A stretch of DNA of 64,000 nt from Methanobacteriota archaeon (GCA_043806635.1 JAZDGT010000038.1:14641-78640), one strand, 5' to 3'; shown: positions 56,771-64,000, numbered from the stretch's first letter. Translations and numbers: made by a program. The notes: generated by a model from the letters alone, not told the origin.

Positions 56771-57433
56771 TTATTTTGGGTACAGTGGGCAGTCTTTTTT
56801 GTTCTCAGGACAAACTTTTTTGGTTTTACATGACGGACCAGCGTTCTTGAAAATGGTTGGAGCCACCTTCTTGACTTCCAGTAGCATCTTCTGAGCAAGC
56901 TGCCTGATCTCCCATTGCGCATGCAGACAACACCGCAATTCAAAGAAATTCAAGAGTGATCGTGCGTTCATCGTTACCATAATATTTGTACACGTTGCAT
57001 TCGGTAGCACATATCTCGAATCCTCAGCAGGAATTCCTAACGCTAATAACTTATTGTATTCCATCCAGATATGCGTCATCGTCTCTTCATACGCTTTTTT
57101 CATCCTCTTGTTTTTCGCGATCGTCGGAGGAATCACATAACTTGGTTTTTTCAGGTTCACGTACCGTTGACTCTGCTGAGAGTAACTCGCGATACGATGA
57201 CGCACCAGCTGATGCGTCAATGATCTGCTCACGTCACTGATAGCGAACGTGAAACATACGTGCTCCACCACGCTGGTGTGACCCAAACCTACCACCTGTT
57301 GGAGGATAGCTTGCAGCTCCTTATCACTCGTTTTTTCTAACTCCGCTGGCTTACTCGTTGTATGAGTGAGTTTAGCGGCCATTGCAGGAATCTTCTCCGG
57401 GTCAGGCGTGAACCCAATCAGTTTCACATTCAT
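56771..57433 (-). CDS. thyX: FAD-dependent thymidylate synthase
   Basis: ThyX signature RHRxxSxxxxSQRY is present as VRHRIASYSQQSQRY. 220 aa. Confidence 0.9.
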   Translation of the reverse strand: MNVKLIGFTPDPEKIPAMAAKLTHTTSKPAELEKTSDKELQAILQQVVGLGHTSVVEHVCFTFAISDVSRSLTHQLVRHRIASYSQQSQRYVNLKKPSYVIPPTIAKNKRMKKAYEETMTHIWMEYNKLLALGIPAEDSRYVLPNATCTNIMVTMNARSLLNFFELRCCLHAQWEIRQLAQKMLLEVKKVAPTIFKNAGPSCKTKKVCPENKKDCPLYPK

Positions 57434-57557: not shown

Positions 57558-58082
57558 ATGATCGCATTTCTTATTACGACCATCCTGTGTTTCATCATCT
57601 ATCTCCTGTTCACGACGGGCAGTGGAACCGCGGTGATGGGACTATGGAGCTATGAAGAACTCGCTCTTGGAGTAATACTCTCGCTACTCATCGGGTTTAT
57701 CGCCCGGAAGATTTTTGTGAAACAAAACTATCGTATGTTGAACCCTGTGAGATGGTTCCTGTTCCTCGCTTATGTGATTGGTCCGTTTTTTTTTGCACTC
57801 GCGAAAGCCAACCTTGATGTCGCCTACAGAGTAATCACGGGGAAGATTCACCCTGGTATCGTCCGGATCTCCCCTGATCTAAAAACTGATCTGGGGATCA
57901 CGATGCTGGCGAACTCGATCACATTAACACCGGGTACCTTAAGCGTGGATATCGATGAAGAAACAAATGATTTGTATATTCATTGGATCAACGTTGATGA
58001 GAAAGCATTAGAGAACAAGCCGGTTGACTGTAAATATATTTGTGGGAATTTCCCGAAGTGGGTGAGGAGGATCGCGGAATGA
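57558..58082 (+). CDS. mnhE: Mrp/Mnh antiporter subunit E (MbhA-like)
   Basis: 174 aa with two N-terminal TM and the ITLTPGT motif of MnhE. First gene of a tightly overlapping operon. Confidence 0.8.
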   Translation: MIAFLITTILCFIIYLLFTTGSGTAVMGLWSYEELALGVILSLLIGFIARKIFVKQNYRMLNPVRWFLFLAYVIGPFFFALAKANLDVAYRVITGKIHPGIVRISPDLKTDLGITMLANSITLTPGTLSVDIDEETNDLYIHWINVDEKALENKPVDCKYICGNFPKWVRRIAE

Positions 58083-58347
58083 TCGACGTGTATACAACAT
58101 ATTTGATTGTGGTGATCGCACTTGGTTTATGCACCATTTTAGCGCTTCTACGGGTTTTCCTTGGACCGACTGCTCCTGATCGTGTTGTGGTGTTGATACG
58201 ATTAACACGATTGTGATCGTGGGTATGGTGGTGTTCGGTGCTGCGTTCAATGAAGTCATCTATATTGACGTCGCGATCGTATATGCGTTTCTGTCGTTTA
58301 TCTCCACGTTGTTTATCGCGAAATATCTTGAGGGAGGGGAGTTTTAA
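58079..58347 (+). pseudogene. mnhF: Mrp/Mnh subunit F (MbhB-like) with a 1-nt frameshift near 58195
   Basis: Absent from the track. ATG 58079 gives MIDVYTTYLIVVIALGLCTILALLRVFLGPTAPDRVVVL, then a stop at 58214-58216. The next frame continues TINTIVIVGMVVFGAAFNEVIYIDVAIVYAFLSFISTLFIAKYLEGGEF to a stop at 58345-58347. The MnhF consensus ..DRVVALDTINT.. implies one missing G (TTGGAT -> TTGAT). Confidence 0.75.
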
Positions 58348-58348
58348 G

Positions 58349-58783
58349 ATGGTGCTTGCACAAGTGTTTGATGCGGTAATTTACCTGTTACTTGGTATCG
58401 GGGTTTTCTTCAACCTTTTAGCAGGAATCGGACTCTTACGATTCCCTGACGTGTATACGAGGTTGCATGCGGGGACGAAATGTACCACGTTTGGCTCTAT
58501 CTTCATTATCGGTTCAGTGATACTTATCGGATTAAAAAATTGGGTATGGTGGCCGTATAATGTGAATGGATCAGTCCTTGCAATCCACTCAGCTATCGCG
58601 TTAGTCGCGATTCTCTTGACGAACCCGGTAGGTGCGCATGCGATCGCTCGTGCTGCGCATCGAAGCGGGGTGATGCCTGCGCAGGCGGTCGTAGATGATT
58701 TGAAACAGACGCCGCCGAATAAACGGGGTAGAAAGAAAACCAATAATACGAAAAAAATTATGGAAAACGAGGGAGGGCCATAA
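58349..58783 (+). CDS. mnhG: Mrp/Mnh subunit G (MbhC-like)
   Basis: MVLAQVFDAVIYLLLGIGVFFNLLAGIGLLRFPDVYTRLHAGTK matches the PhaG/MnhG signature. Basic C-terminal tail. The track start at 58238 is a run-on. Confidence 0.85.
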   Translation: MVLAQVFDAVIYLLLGIGVFFNLLAGIGLLRFPDVYTRLHAGTKCTTFGSIFIIGSVILIGLKNWVWWPYNVNGSVLAIHSAIALVAILLTNPVGAHAIARAAHRSGVMPAQAVVDDLKQTPPNKRGRKKTNNTKKIMENEGGP

Positions 58784-58784
58784 A

Positions 58785-59036
58785 ATGCTTATTGAACTTG
58801 CGAATAGCATCATACTCATCCTCATGGTTGTTGCTGCCGTGTTCGCCGTGTTCTTAAAAGATCTTCTTGCTGCAGCTGTTGCATTAGCGGCGATGAGTCT
58901 GCTGTTATCCCTTGAGTTTTATCTTTTACAAGCCCCTGATGTGGCGATCGCGCAGGCTGGTGTGGGTGCGTGTCTATCTACCGCGATTCTTATCATTGCG
59001 ATAAAAGCGACGAAGCGTATGGAGGATGAGAAATAA
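58785..59036 (+). CDS. MbhD-like (DUF4040) membrane subunit
   Basis: 83 aa, 3 TM, with the APDVAIAQAGVGA motif typical of the MrpA C-terminal/MbhD family. Confidence 0.7.
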   Translation: MLIELANSIILILMVVAAVFAVFLKDLLAAAVALAAMSLLLSLEFYLLQAPDVAIAQAGVGACLSTAILIIAIKATKRMEDEK

Positions 59037-59309
59037 ATGGAGAAGCGGGATATGGTTGCGGCTCTCTTTTTCACGGTTGTTGCCGTTTTTTTTGTGTTCA
59101 GTATGCTTCTGATTCATCCGTTTGGTGACCCGGGAAGCCCTGCTATGGATGATTATATTATTCTGCATACTCAGGGTGAAGCAGGAACGAACAACGGGGT
59201 TACCTCTGTCGTGTTTGATTATCGAGGTTTTGATACACTTGGTGAAGCAACGATCCTGTTTACTGCTGTTGCTGGTGTGATCATGATCTTTCGGAGGGTG
59301 AAACCATGA
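59037..59309 (+). CDS. MbhE-like small membrane subunit (MnhB-related)
   Basis: 90 aa with the [23 protein letters not shown] motif. Confidence 0.7.
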
Positions 59310-59779
59310 CCGAGATGTCAAAGATTGTGCGGACGGTTACGAACATGATTTTCCCGTTGATTATGATATTCGGGTTGTATGTGATCGCCCATGGACATCT
59401 GACTCCTGGTGGTGGGTTTCAGGGTGGCGCTGTTGCTGCCTCAGGGTTGGCTCTCTTGCTTGTTGCCTATGGATCCCCCTGGGTTTTTGAGAGGATTAAA
59501 GAGAAACATCTTTCGATGTTCGAAAGCATTGGTGCGGTATGGTTTATCGTGGTTGCGTTGCTTGGTCTAGCCTTTGGAAGTGTTTTTTTCCTGAATTTCC
59601 TAGTTGGAACACCCGTGTTTGGTAACATACCTCAGTTTGGTGCCACAGTTGCTGATCTGAACACAGGTGGTGTGTTGCCATTAATGAATTTCGCGGTGGG
59701 GTTGAAGGTGATTGCTGGGTTGTTTGTGGTTGTCCTGGTGATGGCGTTCGCTAGTAATTGGAAGGAGGGGAAACCATGA
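59306..59779 (+). CDS. mnhB: Mrp/Mnh subunit B (MbhF-like)
   Basis: [15 protein letters not shown] motif. 157 aa, 4 TM. Confidence 0.85.
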
Positions 59780-60135
59780 TTCTGAATCTGCCGTTTCTTA
59801 TTGTTGTTGCGACGATATGTATTGGGTTGTTCGCTGTTCTTTTTAAGAGGAATCTGATTAAGCTCGTGATTGGGATCTCGATTATTGAGAATGGGGTGAA
59901 CCTCTTTTTGATCACCTTGGGGTATCGTGAGGGTGGTGTTGCACCGATTTACACGAGTTTCCCGTCTGAGGTAACATCTGCTGGGCAGATGGTGTTACCG
60001 GTGCCTCAGGCGTTGACCCTGACTAGTATCGTGATTGGTGTGGCGGTGCTTGCGTTGATGTTGTCGTTAGTGATGTATATTTATCGTCATTATGGAACTT
60101 TGGATGTTCGGAAGATGAGGAGGTTGAAGGAATGA
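59776..60135 (+). CDS. mnhC: Mrp/Mnh subunit C (NuoK-like, MbhG-like)
   Basis: Start [10 protein letters not shown] is preceded by GGAGGGG. 119 aa, 3 TM, IIENGVNLFLI motif. ATGA overlap with mnhB. Confidence 0.85.
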   Translation: MILNLPFLIVVATICIGLFAVLFKRNLIKLVIGISIIENGVNLFLITLGYREGGVAPIYTSFPSEVTSAGQMVLPVPQALTLTSIVIGVAVLALMLSLVMYIYRHYGTLDVRKMRRLKE

Positions 60136-61724
60136 ACGCGCCAGATTATGTGATTCCCTTGATTGTGGCGACGCCGCTTCTTGGTGCGTTTCTCACGCCC
60201 TTGGTGAGTCGGCTGGGGGAGAAAATCCGGCAGGTTTTCGTCCTTGTCATCCTTGGTATCACTGGAGTTTTTATAGGTTTGTTGGGGTCTGATGTGTTCA
60301 CGTCTGGTGTTCCTCGGACCTATATTTTTGGTGCAAAAAATCTTAGTCTTCCTGTTGTCCGTATCTTGTTTGAAGTCGACAGTATGAGTCTGTTCATGGC
60401 TCTGGTGAGCTTCGTTTTAGTGTTGGTGGCAGTAATCTATTCTTGGTCGTTTATGAAGGAGCATGATGGACTGGATAAGTATTACACACTGCTGTTATTG
60501 TTATTTACTGCGATGCTGGGTATGGAGCTTACTGGTGATTTGTTCAACTTCTTCGTCTTCTTAGAAATCACGTGTATTTCTTCTGCTGCATTGATCGCGT
60601 TTTGGGTGTACAAACCAGAGGCGGTTGAGGCTGCGTTTAAGTATATCGTGGTTAGCGCGATTGGTGCGTTGTTTATTCTGTTCGCAATCGGGTTGTTGTA
60701 CGCGCAATATAATGCGTTGAATATTGGTGTGATCGGTAGCTTGTTACAGTTCACGTTTTTAGACAAGATAGCGTTGGTATTGTTCCTTGTTGTTCTGACG
60801 ATGAAAGCAGGGTTAGTCCCGATGCATATGTGGTTACCGGATTCGTATGGGCAGGCACCGCATGCGGCGACTCTGGTGATTATTGGTGCGACCCAGGCGA
60901 GCCTATATGGGCTGTTACGGATCTGTTTCACCCTTTATGGGAACGTGTTCAACGAGATATCCCCTGTCTCCTCAATGGTTTTCGGGGGGCTCATCACTGG
61001 GTTAGCACTCCTCGCGATATTCGTTGGGGTGATCATGGCGTTGATGCAGACTGATTTCACCCGGTTGATTGCGTATGCTGCGGTTGCTGAGGTCGGATAT
61101 ATTCTCCTAGGTATCGGTGTTCGTTTATCGTCTGTGCAGATCAGCTTCGATGCTCTTGGCCTAGGTCACGTAGTCACGTATCCAGCGTATGGGGTGACCG
61201 CGTTACAAGGAAGTGTTTTTCATATCTTCAATGATGTCTTAGATATCGGTCTGTTGTTTTTGGTCGCTGGTGCCGTGTATTATGCGACGAAAGAACGTTC
61301 TTTGGATAACCTCGCCGGGTTATCTCGACAGATGAAATATACGACCGTGTTTTTCATCATCGGTTTTCTTGCGATCTCAGGGATGCCGCCGATGAACGGT
61401 TTCGCCTCTAAACTCATGCTGTATGAGTCAACGTTCCAGTTGAACCCGATCCTGGGTATCGTCGCAATCCTCTGCAGTATCCTGCTTCTTGCCGTGTTCG
61501 TGAAAGTCTTTTATTCCGTATTCCTCGGGCCACAGCTTCCACACATGATTGAGGTGAAAGAAGTCCCCCGGAGTATGTTGATTGCGATGGCGATCATCGC
61601 AGGACTCATCATCTTCATCGGGTTGTTCCCAGATCTCATATTACAGAATCTTGTACAACCCGCAACACAGGCGCTCTTTGGGTATAAAACGTATTTCTCA
61701 CAAGTTATCATGGGGGGAATCTAA
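60132..61724 (+). CDS. mnhD: Mrp/Mnh subunit D, antiporter-like (NuoM/N family, MbhH-like)
   Basis: 530 aa with about 14 TM. Proton-antiporter motifs (KAGLVPMHMWLPD, GMPPMNGF). It is the only large antiporter-like subunit in the operon. Confidence 0.85.
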   Translation: MNAPDYVIPLIVATPLLGAFLTPLVSRLGEKIRQVFVLVILGITGVFIGLLGSDVFTSGVPRTYIFGAKNLSLPVVRILFEVDSMSLFMALVSFVLVLVAVIYSWSFMKEHDGLDKYYTLLLLLFTAMLGMELTGDLFNFFVFLEITCISSAALIAFWVYKPEAVEAAFKYIVVSAIGALFILFAIGLLYAQYNALNIGVIGSLLQFTFLDKIALVLFLVVLTMKAGLVPMHMWLPDSYGQAPHAATLVIIGATQASLYGLLRICFTLYGNVFNEISPVSSMVFGGLITGLALLAIFVGVIMALMQTDFTRLIAYAAVAEVGYILLGIGVRLSSVQISFDALGLGHVVTYPAYGVTALQGSVFHIFNDVLDIGLLFLVAGAVYYATKERSLDNLAGLSRQMKYTTVFFIIGFLAISGMPPMNGFASKLMLYESTFQLNPILGIVAILCSILLLAVFVKVFYSVFLGPQLPHMIEVKEVPRSMLIAMAIIAGLIIFIGLFPDLILQNLVQPATQALFGYKTYFSQVIMGGI

Positions 61725-61726
61725 GC

Positions 61727-62062
61727 ATGTTCACGATTGATACCGGTGCAGGGTATTGGACCCCGCTTATCTGGTGCCTCATCCTTGTCATTACGTTTCT
61801 GCTCATCTACATCCTGAGAGGGTTCGGACGGAAAGACTACAAAAAAGATACGGATCAAGTGAAATCATTCCTCTCAGGGAACATCGAGGCTCCATCGGAG
61901 CAGCATATCAAAGCGAGCAATCTCTACTGGGGGTTCACAACAAGCCTGAAATGGTTATTCGGACTTTTACGACGGATGCATACGGGGAACGCGAGTGATT
62001 ACGTCCTCTGGTTCATTATTATCCTTGCGTTGTTCTTCATCGTGGGGATGGTGGTGATCTAA
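61727..62062 (+). CDS. Small membrane subunit, MbhI-like (assignment tentative)
   Basis: 111 aa with TM helices at both ends and an amphipathic middle. Its position between the MbhH-like and MbhM-like genes matches Mbh/Mbx gene order. Confidence 0.5.
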   Translation: MFTIDTGAGYWTPLIWCLILVITFLLIYILRGFGRKDYKKDTDQVKSFLSGNIEAPSEQHIKASNLYWGFTTSLKWLFGLLRRMHTGNASDYVLWFIIILALFFIVGMVVI

Positions 62063-62063
62063 G

Positions 62064-63164
62064 ATGGATATCCAAGCAATCGTTGAACTCGTCTTCCTAC
62101 GAATCATCCTTGGAGGGCTCTTCCTCACCGGTTTCGGTATCTTCTTCGGGTTACTCTTCAAAGGGATTGATCGGAAAATCGCTGCACACATGCAAGGCCG
62201 GATTGGGCCACCCATCACCCAGCCTTTCAGGGATGTTAAAAAACTGTTCGTGAAAGAAAACATCATCCCCGAGCAGGCGATACCCTGGATCTTCAACCTC
62301 GCCCCACTCATCGGGTTAATCGCCACCATCTCAATACTCCTATATCTACCGATTCTCCCATTCGGCGCACAAGGAGCATTTAGCCCGATTCTCCCAGCCT
62401 GGGGTGGAGACCTAATACTCATACTCTATCTCCTCATTATTCCCTCCCTTGCGATGGTCATCGGCGGGTTCTCCTCAGGCTCCCCTTACGCAGTCGTTGG
62501 TGCACAACGAGAGATGGCGACCATGATCGCGTATGAGTTCCCCCTCGCCATCATCATTATTAGTATCGCATGGAAACTCCTCCAAACCAACCTCGGTGGA
62601 CCAGTGTTCACATTCTCCTTACTTACCTCAACACCCGTCTGGAATCTCGCAGGCCCGTTTGGGTTCATCGGATTCATTGTCCTCCTGCTCGCACTCATCC
62701 TCGTCACCCCTGCAGAGTTATCAAAGATCCCATTCGATTCCCCAGAAGCAGAAACCGAGATTGCTGGAGGCTTACTCGTTGAATACTCCGGGCGGAACCT
62801 CGCTATGTTCTACCTCACCGATGGTGTGAAGACTGTGGTAATGGCATCACTGATTGTCGCGTTGTTTTTCCCGTATAATTTGACGCAAGCAGGGTTACTC
62901 CATGGGTTGGTAGGTACATTGCCTGGGTATGCTTTAGATATCCTGTTCTTCTTCCTGAAAGTATTCCTGATTATCTTGTTCTCCGTCACCCTGATACGCG
63001 TAGCAATCGCGCGATTAAGGATTGACCAAATCGTCTACACTTACTGGATTCCCATCACCCTCATGGCATTGATCGGGTTAATCCTGATCATGTGGGATAC
63101 ATGGACGATGGCGCAGTTCGGCTGGTCCCCCGTCCTAGAAATGCTGAGAATTATCAAACCGTGA
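62064..63164 (+). CDS. NuoH/HycD/MbhM-family membrane subunit
   Basis: GIDRKIAAHMQGRIGPPITQPFRDVKKLFVKENIIP matches the DRK..A..Q.R.GP....Q...D..KL..KE signature of complex-I subunit-H homologues. 366 aa, about 8 TM. Confidence 0.8.
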   Translation: MDIQAIVELVFLRIILGGLFLTGFGIFFGLLFKGIDRKIAAHMQGRIGPPITQPFRDVKKLFVKENIIPEQAIPWIFNLAPLIGLIATISILLYLPILPFGAQGAFSPILPAWGGDLILILYLLIIPSLAMVIGGFSSGSPYAVVGAQREMATMIAYEFPLAIIIISIAWKLLQTNLGGPVFTFSLLTSTPVWNLAGPFGFIGFIVLLLALILVTPAELSKIPFDSPEAETEIAGGLLVEYSGRNLAMFYLTDGVKTVVMASLIVALFFPYNLTQAGLLHGLVGTLPGYALDILFFFLKVFLIILFSVTLIRVAIARLRIDQIVYTYWIPITLMALIGLILIMWDTWTMAQFGWSPVLEMLRIIKP

Positions 63165-63240: not shown

Positions 63241-64000
63241 ATGGATACACAAAAAAAATCATCACAAATTAATGATACCACTATTGTCGGTGTCTTCTTC
63301 CTTATTCCCACCATCATGCTTCTATTCGGATATTTTGTCTTCCCCTATCCACAGCCTGAGCCAACAATACTCGTCACCTACTCCCTCTTATTCTTAGGCT
63401 TACTCCTCCTAGGTATCGGTTATCTCAAAAAAGATAACATAACCGCGAGTAAAAGTAAAATTGCAGGATGGGTTCTTTTTTCCTCATTCTGGGCGACCTA
63501 CCCCCATCATCTCTACTACTCTGAAGGCGGAGATATTTTTAACGCAGCAGTCTGCATCATCGGCGTTTACGTCTTATTCTACCTCGCCTACCAAGAATGG
63601 CTCTCCATACAAAAAAAAGAATACCCCGCCAGTCTCAACTGGATCGCAGGAGGAACGTTTCTTGCTGGAATCATCTACTTCACCATTGATATTGGCGTAT
63701 TTCCCCAACTGAAGACTACCCTCATTGAGATAGTGGCCTCTCATAGTACGATGGTGTTAAATCTTTTTAATTTACACGCTACCAATCAAGGATCGATTAT
63801 CAAGTACGCGGGGACAACGATCACTATCATTTTTGCATGTACCGCAATTCAATCGATGGTCCTCTTTGTCGGAATGATCGGAGCATTACACACGAACATG
63901 AAAAAAAAAAACTCATTGGTATCACCATCACGGTCATCCCGATTTATTTGCTCAACCTTATCCGTAACGCAGGGGTCATCTTTTTAGTTGGAGGAAATAT
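63241..64000 (+). pseudogene. Archaeosortase-family protein, frameshifted in an A11 run (63901-63911). The 3' end is beyond the window.
   Basis: Polytopic membrane protein with the catalytic-Cys context IIFACTAIQSM. After the poly-A run the annotated frame gives nonsense (NSLVSPSRSS...). The alternative frame reads LIGITITVIPIYLLNLIRNAGVIFLVGG, which holds the conserved Arg about 41 residues after the Cys, as in ArtA. Confidence 0.7.

Follow-up and report, generated by a model that had tools for sequence, protein, structure and literature searches.

We analysed a 64,000-nucleotide stretch of DNA (hereafter the window) from a metagenome-assembled genome (MAG) of a Methanobacteriota archaeon (GCA_043806635.1, JAZDGT010000038.1:14641-78640; the contig is called C38 below). 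The MAG comprises 1.93 Mb in 83 contigs and is 85.7% complete, and C38 continues just 1087 bp past the window end. At positions 57558-63164, ten plus-strand genes follow one another in the order mbhA-B-C-D-E-F-G-H-I-M, with neighbours that overlap or lie 0-3 nt apart. We interpret this locus, with good confidence, as the ten-subunit membrane arm of a group-4 (Mbh-type) [NiFe] hydrogenase, an ion pump of the membrane that produces hydrogen, in a sediment archaeon of the Thermoprofundales (MBG-D), where the 14-gene operon has been split. An initial annotation, made from the sequence alone, had described ten tightly packed or overlapping genes in the order Mrp E-F-G-D'-E'-B-C-D-I plus a NuoH-like gene, and family searches recovered all of them where it had placed them, on the plus strand. 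The genes and their immediate neighbours are listed below with window coordinates and with the scores of their family and structure matches.

57558..58082, plus strand: mbhA (MrpE-like), 174 amino acids (aa); Pfam MNHE 9.2e-36; synteny conserved in relatives
58079..58347, plus strand: mbhB (MrpF-like), broken; only the C-terminal half matches Pfam MrpF_PhaF, 1.3e-11
58349..58783, plus strand: mbhC (MrpG-like); Pfam PhaG_MnhG_YufB 2.4e-25
58785..59036, plus strand: mbhD (MrpA C-terminal piece, DUF4040), 83 aa; Pfam MbhD 7.7e-18; NCBIfam NF006242, 103 bits against a cut-off of 98
59037..59309, plus strand: mbhE, 90 aa; Pfam MbhE 3e-9
59306..59779, plus strand: mbhF (MrpB-like), 157 aa; Pfam MnhB 2.1e-28
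59758..60135, plus strand: mbhG (MrpC/NuoK-like); Pfam Oxidored_q2 1.5e-27
60132..61724, plus strand: mbhH (MrpD/NuoN-like), 530 aa; Pfam Proton_antipo_M 8.4e-40; PDB 6cfw_H 6.6e-86
61727..62062, plus strand: mbhI (anchor resembling the NuoA N-terminus), 111 aa; NCBIfam equivalog NF053600, 109.8 bits against a cut-off of 95; 6cfw_I 6e-9
62064..63164, plus strand: mbhM (NuoH-like), 366 aa; Pfam NADHdh 6.8e-67; PDB 6cfw_M 1.7e-50
56771..57433, minus strand: thyX; Pfam Thy1 6e-71; divergent upstream neighbour and conserved synteny marker
63241..64000, running on to about 64190 on C38, plus strand: archaeosortase A gene (artA), which starts 76 nt after mbhM

All seven Mrp-derived small subunits, MbhA-G, were matched in Pfam and stand in the order E, F, G, D, E', B, C; the start of mbhG is likely the ATG at 59776, which overlaps the mbhF stop. 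MbhH, the one Proton_antipo_M protein, is the sole large antiporter-like subunit within the cluster, as had been claimed. Directly after mbhI, which ends at 62062, mbhM starts at 62064. MbhI gave no real Pfam match, and chain I of 6cfw was its one solved-structure match; the equivalog and NADHdh scores listed above agree with the earlier view that an MbhI-like gene is followed by a NuoH-like one, and the membership of the 62064 gene in the NuoH family, which the initial annotation had singled out for checking, held. MbhM keeps the counterpart of Pyrococcus furiosus Glu141 and the NuoH signature loop PFDxPEAExE...EYSG. Family searches of the locus found no NuoB-, NuoC-, NuoD- or NuoI-type gene adjoining the cluster, in line with the earlier remark that peripheral hydrogenase or Nuo subunits are not adjacent: J, K, L and N are missing from the locus and artA comes after M. 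The flanking genes, too, had been recognized correctly, with thyX upstream on the other strand and an archaeosortase gene 76 nt downstream; the identity of artA comes from its orthologue on a related contig (L002, 11122-12063), which scored 127 bits with TIGR04125 against a cut-off of 75.

The type of the arm had been left between Mbh and Mbx. The best structure matches of H, I and M are chains of the P. furiosus Mbh (PDB 6CFW), and the arm is therefore Mbh-type and not of the type of Mbx/MBS, the membrane-bound sulfane reductase (PDB 6U8Y), so that only the Mbh half of the proposal stood. MBS likewise has an Mrp-like module and a NuoH-like subunit, but it has additional antiporter-like subunits, and its chains score far below those of Mbh: MbhM matched 6u8y_M at 6.4e-26, much more weakly than 6cfw_M, and MbhH matched its MBS chain at 1.5e-41, compared with 6.6e-86 for 6cfw_H. 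The L subunit of MBS is not known to carry the NiFe cysteines, whereas the L subunits of relatives in this lineage retain both CxxC motifs of the NiFe site. The cluster is not a canonical Mrp (Mnh/Pha) antiporter either (PDB 6Z16, 7QRU, 7D3U). Homologues of MrpE, F, G, B, C and D and C-terminal pieces of MrpA are all present, and a relative's cluster complements an antiporter-deficient Escherichia coli (PMC9585477), but the N-terminal antiporter-like domain of MrpA is missing, which leaves one large subunit, and MbhI and the NuoH-like MbhM are extra.

The P. furiosus Mbh, whose 6CFW structure was described by Yu et al. 2018 (as cited in PMC8679088 and PMC9585477), is thus the closest solved system. 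It has the same subunit set with the same order from A to I, it is the best structure match for H, M and I as well as for the MbhB of a relative, and its MbhH Glu143/Lys225 pair, His346 and Lys409 and its MbhM Glu141 are conserved here. It differs in gene order, since the window has no J, K and L between I and M and no N after M, in the length of MbhM, which is about 45 residues longer in the window, and in several MbhH residues (Lys256, His350, Lys354 and the additional Asp353) that are described below.

Relatives of MbhM were found on 73 Thermoplasmatota/Thermoplasmatales MAG contigs (L001-L073) at 64-75% identity, SM1-50 and SG8-52-3 among them, two genomes that we take to be MBG-D. Comparing gene neighbourhoods in relatives, as the initial annotation had proposed, gave a uniform picture. 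Where the contig is long enough, tblastn recovered mut7-ribD-thyX on one strand and A-B-C-D-E-F-G-H-I-M with the archaeosortase gene on the other, and thyX lies upstream of mbhA in most relatives with loci reaching that far. The layout of thyX, mbhA-I,M and artA recurs in about 70 species-level Thermoplasmatota MAGs with intact open reading frames (ORFs). The ten-gene layout is a conserved state of the whole lineage and not a local accident or a misassembly.

The same layout has been described before. Zhang et al. (2022, Mol Biol Evol 39:msac213; PMC9585477) reported that Thermoprofundales (formerly MBG-D) encode a group 4d MBH, and that in their Subgroup E the MBH genes form two separate units, MbhJKLN for the peripheral arm and MbhABCDEFGHIM for the membrane arm; a recombinant Thermoprofundales MbhL evolved H2 in vitro. 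Our locus has the same ten genes in the same order, with I followed directly by M, in the same group of organisms, and in relatives the peripheral arm sits at a separate locus and its L subunit, which that paper assigns to group 4d, has NiFe ligands. Nothing essential sets the two apart; this MAG differs in that its assembly is without the JKLN unit and its mbhB carries a 1-nt deletion. The link to Thermoprofundales comes from the closest loci, which belong to Thermoplasmatota/Thermoplasmatales MAGs, and the likeness to Subgroup E is one of gene layout. The split layout, then, has been known since 2022, and the finding is real, not new.

To place the catalytic half, we counted both arms across 118 genomes of the order, 43 of them high-quality. 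The NuoD-like family PF00346 is present in 109 genomes (41 of the high-quality ones), usually as one copy of about 411-420 aa, and the NuoH-like gene in 102 (all 43 high-quality ones); both Mbh halves occur together in 41 of the 43. All NuoD-like genes that were inspected encode MbhL and belong to a JKLN cluster, most often arranged as hypE-mbhJ-K-L-N-hypF at a distant locus. At this second locus relatives encode the four cytoplasmic subunits: the NuoB-like MbhJ, the NuoC-like MbhK, the NiFe large or NuoD-like MbhL, and MbhN, which resembles a 2x[4Fe-4S] ferredoxin. The MbhL of one closed genome (G055) matched Complex1_49kDa at 4.6e-67 and the N-terminus of NiFeSe_Hases at 4e-17, and it carries the NiFe ligand motifs RICGICSFCH and DPCMSCTNR and is therefore a true [NiFe] large subunit.

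Three architectures occur within this single GTDB order. In the split form, exemplified by the closed genomes G055 (L084), G054 (L085) and G088 (L088), hypE-J-K-L-N-hypF lies 147 kb to about 830 kb from the membrane arm. Among 20 further relatives, hypF immediately follows mbhN in 17, most of them with hypE before mbhJ, which brings the total to 20 of 23 split-type relatives. In the canonical form (G003, L087; G006, L112), thyX is followed at the same locus by A-B-C-D-E-F-G-H-I-J-K-L-M-N, the order of the Thermococcales. In the third form (G101, L086; G077, L089; G105 and G114, including loci L113 and L114), J-K-L-N comes first and is directly followed by A-I,M; this form stands at a locus without thyX or artA. 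Split and contiguous forms are found within one family (f2, where G003 and G006 are canonical and G004, L111, is split) and within one genus (g40). The distribution of the three forms suggests more than one rearrangement event. The initial proposal that the catalytic subunits are encoded elsewhere is accordingly right for the relatives, where three closed genomes place hypE-mbhJKLN-hypF 147-830 kb away; in the present assembly none was found, and the expected site falls at a contig break. As a separate observation, some relatives (G036, G019, G091, G071, G082 and G083; L078-L083) have a second cluster of NuoB-C-D-I type, with about 35% identity to MbhJKLN and a D subunit of about 376-408 aa that gives the top PF00346 scores.

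We consider that the two transcription units probably still assemble into one complex. In such a complex MbhM and MbhI would provide the docking site for JKLN, and protons would be reduced to H2 at MbhL at the expense of reduced ferredoxin. The energy from this reaction would, by analogy with P. furiosus Mbh, power the movement of ions through MbhH as well as Na+/H+ exchange by MbhA-G. The retention of the two docking subunits points this way: MbhI and MbhM are kept in every split-type locus, and in Mbh they are described mainly as the subunits that anchor the peripheral arm and couple it (PMC8679088, PMC9585477). Moreover, the MAG encodes a separate Mrp-like module at C33:59981-63659, without MbhI or MbhM, whose E, G, E', B, C and D homologues are 31-43% identical to the window genes. 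Since such a module is already present, a plain antiporter role alone would not explain why I and M are kept here. We also compared the divergence of M or I with that of A, C, D, E, F, G and H, leaving out mbhB. The ratio for M was 0.87 in split pairs (n=1104, non-independent) and 0.95 in contiguous pairs (n=7), and that for I was 1.22 and 1.25, respectively, so that neither ratio can be distinguished between split and contiguous pairs.

One part of the membrane arm departs from the P. furiosus enzyme. We compared 67 Thermoprofundales MbhH homologues, drawn from L001-L073, L086, L087 and L089, and all 67 have the counterparts of E143, K225, H346 and K409. None has the counterpart of Lys256 in transmembrane helix 8, where a two-residue gap is found with Thr/Gln or Thr/Leu nearby, and in helix 11 the P. 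furiosus NHxxxK is replaced by NDxLD throughout, with Asp for His350, an Asp at 353 and Ile or Val for Lys354. A link between these substitutions and the operon split was considered and rejected, as relatives with the canonical and the JKLN-first order share the pattern; it is a trait of the clade, unrelated to the split. A search for an outgroup MbhH returned only Thermoprofundales-level relatives among the 120 matches listed, all at least 61% identical. Judged by these residues, the ion pathway or ion specificity of MbhH might differ from that of P. furiosus Mbh.

In this MAG the peripheral arm has to be sought at a contig end. No NuoD-family (PF00346) match was present in its contigs, and tblastn with the G055 proteins found no orthologue of J, K, L or N, only weak matches to other hydrogenases on C45 and C32. 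The MAG has a hypF orthologue (60% identity) that covers residues 332-730 only; it begins at base 4 of contig C41, and its ORF is open at the contig start. In relatives, N-L-K-J-hypE lies immediately upstream of hypF on the same strand. A hypE gene was likewise not detected in the MAG above the cut-off (best match 67 bits, against 251.6), even though two copies of hypD are present (C40:808-1848 and C82:4942-5988) and C45, C32 and C35 each carry a further [NiFe] hydrogenase locus whose small subunit is of the NuoB family. These three hydrogenases need HypE, and its absence is consistent with a hypE located in the same gap as mbhJKLN. It is very likely that hypE, mbhJKLN and the 5' half of hypF exist on a stretch of about 5 kb directly upstream of C41 that was not assembled or not binned. 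No other recorded contig encoding a complete C41 protein or the MbhM of the window was found.

Two other placements of the missing genes were tried and set aside. The three NuoB-family matches do not represent the missing MbhJ, as they stand in group-3 loci without NuoC or NuoD; by gene content, C45 looks like an Hdr/Mvh-like locus, and C32 and C35 like four-subunit sulfhydrogenase-like ones. JKLN is also not found beside the orthologues of the genes that flank it in G055, which lie mid-contig on C2 (about 86-88 kb) and C13 (about 19-26 kb); synteny around the JKLN block is not conserved in this MAG. About 3 kb from orthologues of the genes flanking JKLN-hypF in G055, we observed an orphan maturation protease gene of the HycI family (C2:91274-91591, minus strand) with no adjacent hydrogenase. 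It may encode an MbhL-specific protease, because the MbhL of relatives has a C-terminal extension after DPCxxCxxR.

The second irregularity of this MAG lies within the arm itself. An alignment with seven relatives places a 1-nt deletion in mbhB at about 58188, where the window reads GTTG-TGGTG and the relatives GTTGTTGGTG; the intact form of the site is GTTGTTGG. The two halves (58079-58216 and 58213-58347) are both recognizable against relatives and stand 134 nt apart, compared with 135 nt, in frame, in relatives. After the deletion the 5' ORF continues with eight wrong residues to a TGA stop at 58214-58216, which overlaps the GTG at 58213 that opens the 3' ORF. The garbled stretch corresponds to GVDTINT, whose D, T, N and T codons are invariant in relatives. 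According to a count of residues along the alignment, the position equivalent to Asp35 of P. furiosus MbhB, which has been proposed as the Na+ N-site (PMC8679088), falls within GVDTINT; the counterpart of Asp59 is retained. The intact MbhB of a relative matched 6cfw_B at 3.3e-22.

The sequence 3' of the deletion is still perfectly conserved, which means that the change arose very recently or is an error. Frameshifts affect at least three further conserved genes of the MAG. The first is artA, where an A11 run at about 63900-63912 marks the switch of the tblastn match from frame 2 to frame 1; in relatives this gene is uninterrupted at 313-317 aa, and the indel in the A-run probably stems from the assembly. 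The second is the small subunit of a sulfhydrogenase-like [NiFe] hydrogenase at C35:1852-2609, which shifts frame at about position 2001 when compared with its paralogue on C32, and the third a gene on C41 at about 11.5 kb. Given these cases, an assembly error is likely for mbhB as well, and we lean towards a fault in the assembly or consensus over a genuine pseudogene.

This bears on the earlier suggestion that the locus is the remnant of a lost respiratory complex, with the mbhB (then called mnhF) frameshift as its sign. Applied to this genome, the suggestion would mean that JKLN has been lost, that the frameshift is real and that the membrane arm is turning into pseudogenes. It would account for the failure to find J, K, L and N in the assembly and for the loss of the conserved GVDTINT, and two fairly complete relatives, G065 and G086, also give no NuoD-like match. 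Yet the other nine genes are intact and the sequence beyond the frameshift is fully conserved. The contig end cuts hypF exactly at the expected JKLN site, hypE is missing as well despite the other NiFe hydrogenases that need it, and the MAG is incomplete, with further frameshifts in artA, the C35 small subunit and the C41 gene. The frameshift is real in the assembly, where it is one of several indels. Across the lineage the layout is intact in about 70 species, and MbhM and MbhI, measured against the other subunits, evolve no faster than in lineages with a contiguous operon. Decay in this genome is very unlikely; the MAG probably misses the hypE-mbhJKLN-hypF segment through an assembly gap, and it carries several indel-type frameshifts. 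For the window the value of the analysis is a correct annotation, as the membrane half of an Mbh and not as an orphan antiporter or a cluster of pseudogenes.

Several observations nevertheless weigh against the reading of the locus as one half of a coupled complex. As assembled, mbhB is broken and without its Asp35 counterpart. The assembly contains no J, K, L or N, whose presence in the organism we infer; on its other side, hypF lacks the 'dn88' gene of relatives, so the upstream side could differ too. A membrane arm without any NuoD-like match is seen in G065 (95% complete) and G086 (90% complete), and the contiguous control in the divergence comparison comprises just seven pairs. Finally, Zhang et al. 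found different transcript levels of the two arms, and the membrane-arm cluster alone improved the growth of the antiporter-deficient E. coli strain KNabc at 0.1-0.2 M NaCl, which these authors read as independent function (PMC9585477).

On that reading, put forward by Zhang et al. 2022 (PMC9585477), the main role of MbhA-I,M in vivo would be that of an Mrp-like Na+/H+ antiporter working on its own, and MbhJKLN would be a free four-subunit cytoplasmic hydrogenase, with no coupled complex. The two halves do lie at separate loci, where they are presumably regulated separately, and a MbhH without K256, with Asp for His350, Ile or Val for Lys354 and a second Asp at 353 may use an ion pathway other than that of the canonical pump. 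The complementation of KNabc and the unequal transcripts fit it as well. However, the subunits for anchoring and coupling, MbhI and MbhM, persist in every split locus, M is more conserved than the Mrp-like subunits, and neither the NuoH signature loop nor the counterpart of Glu141 is disrupted. Both halves occur together in nearly all high-quality genomes (41 of 43), the MbhH substitutions also occur in relatives with the canonical order and are not tied to the split, and a dedicated Mrp-like module is already encoded on C33. That a membrane subcomplex carries out antiport in E. coli is no proof of uncoupling in the native host; it is compatible with one complex and with independence alike. 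We regard full independence as unlikely, and give about the same small chance to an intermediate case in which the split is functional and not just genomic, the arm being a free-standing MbhM-containing ion translocator that docks MbhJKLN under some conditions only (switchable coupling).

The initial annotation had raised a related third option, an Mrp-plus-NuoH module that works without a redox arm. As an open hypothesis this was already proposed for the clade by Zhang et al. 2022; the idea of independence is in print, and only the MbhH substitution pattern and conditional docking would be new elements. If true, the existence of an Mbh-type arm that has a NuoH-like subunit and lacks a redox arm would be relevant to the way in which Mrp and hydrogenase modules came together to form complex I-like machines. 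What we see here is an operon split that extends across the lineage and was described, and in part tested, in 2022; in relatives the redox arm is found at a second locus.

A further alternative to a complex with MbhJKLN is that MbhM and MbhI dock another redox module, for example a group-3 hydrogenase or an Mbx/Fpo-like BCDI set. The three other NiFe hydrogenase loci with NuoB-family small subunits (C45, C32 and C35) and the second BCDI-type cluster of some relatives (L078-L083, about 35% identical to JKLN) offer candidates. The C45, C32 and C35 loci, though, have no NuoC-like or NuoD-family subunit, a second BCDI set was not found in this MAG, and canonical and JKLN-first relatives carry JKLN in the same operon as these very membrane genes. 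We judge a different partner to be extremely improbable, and the membrane half of a split Mbh, with MbhJKLN as its counterpart, remains our preferred account of the locus.

Outside the Archaea, a contig of a Candidatus Omnitrophica bacterium (L074, CAIRWO010000124.1) encodes an MbhM-like protein with 40% identity together with an MbhG-like match, and may carry a bacterial Mbh-like complex.

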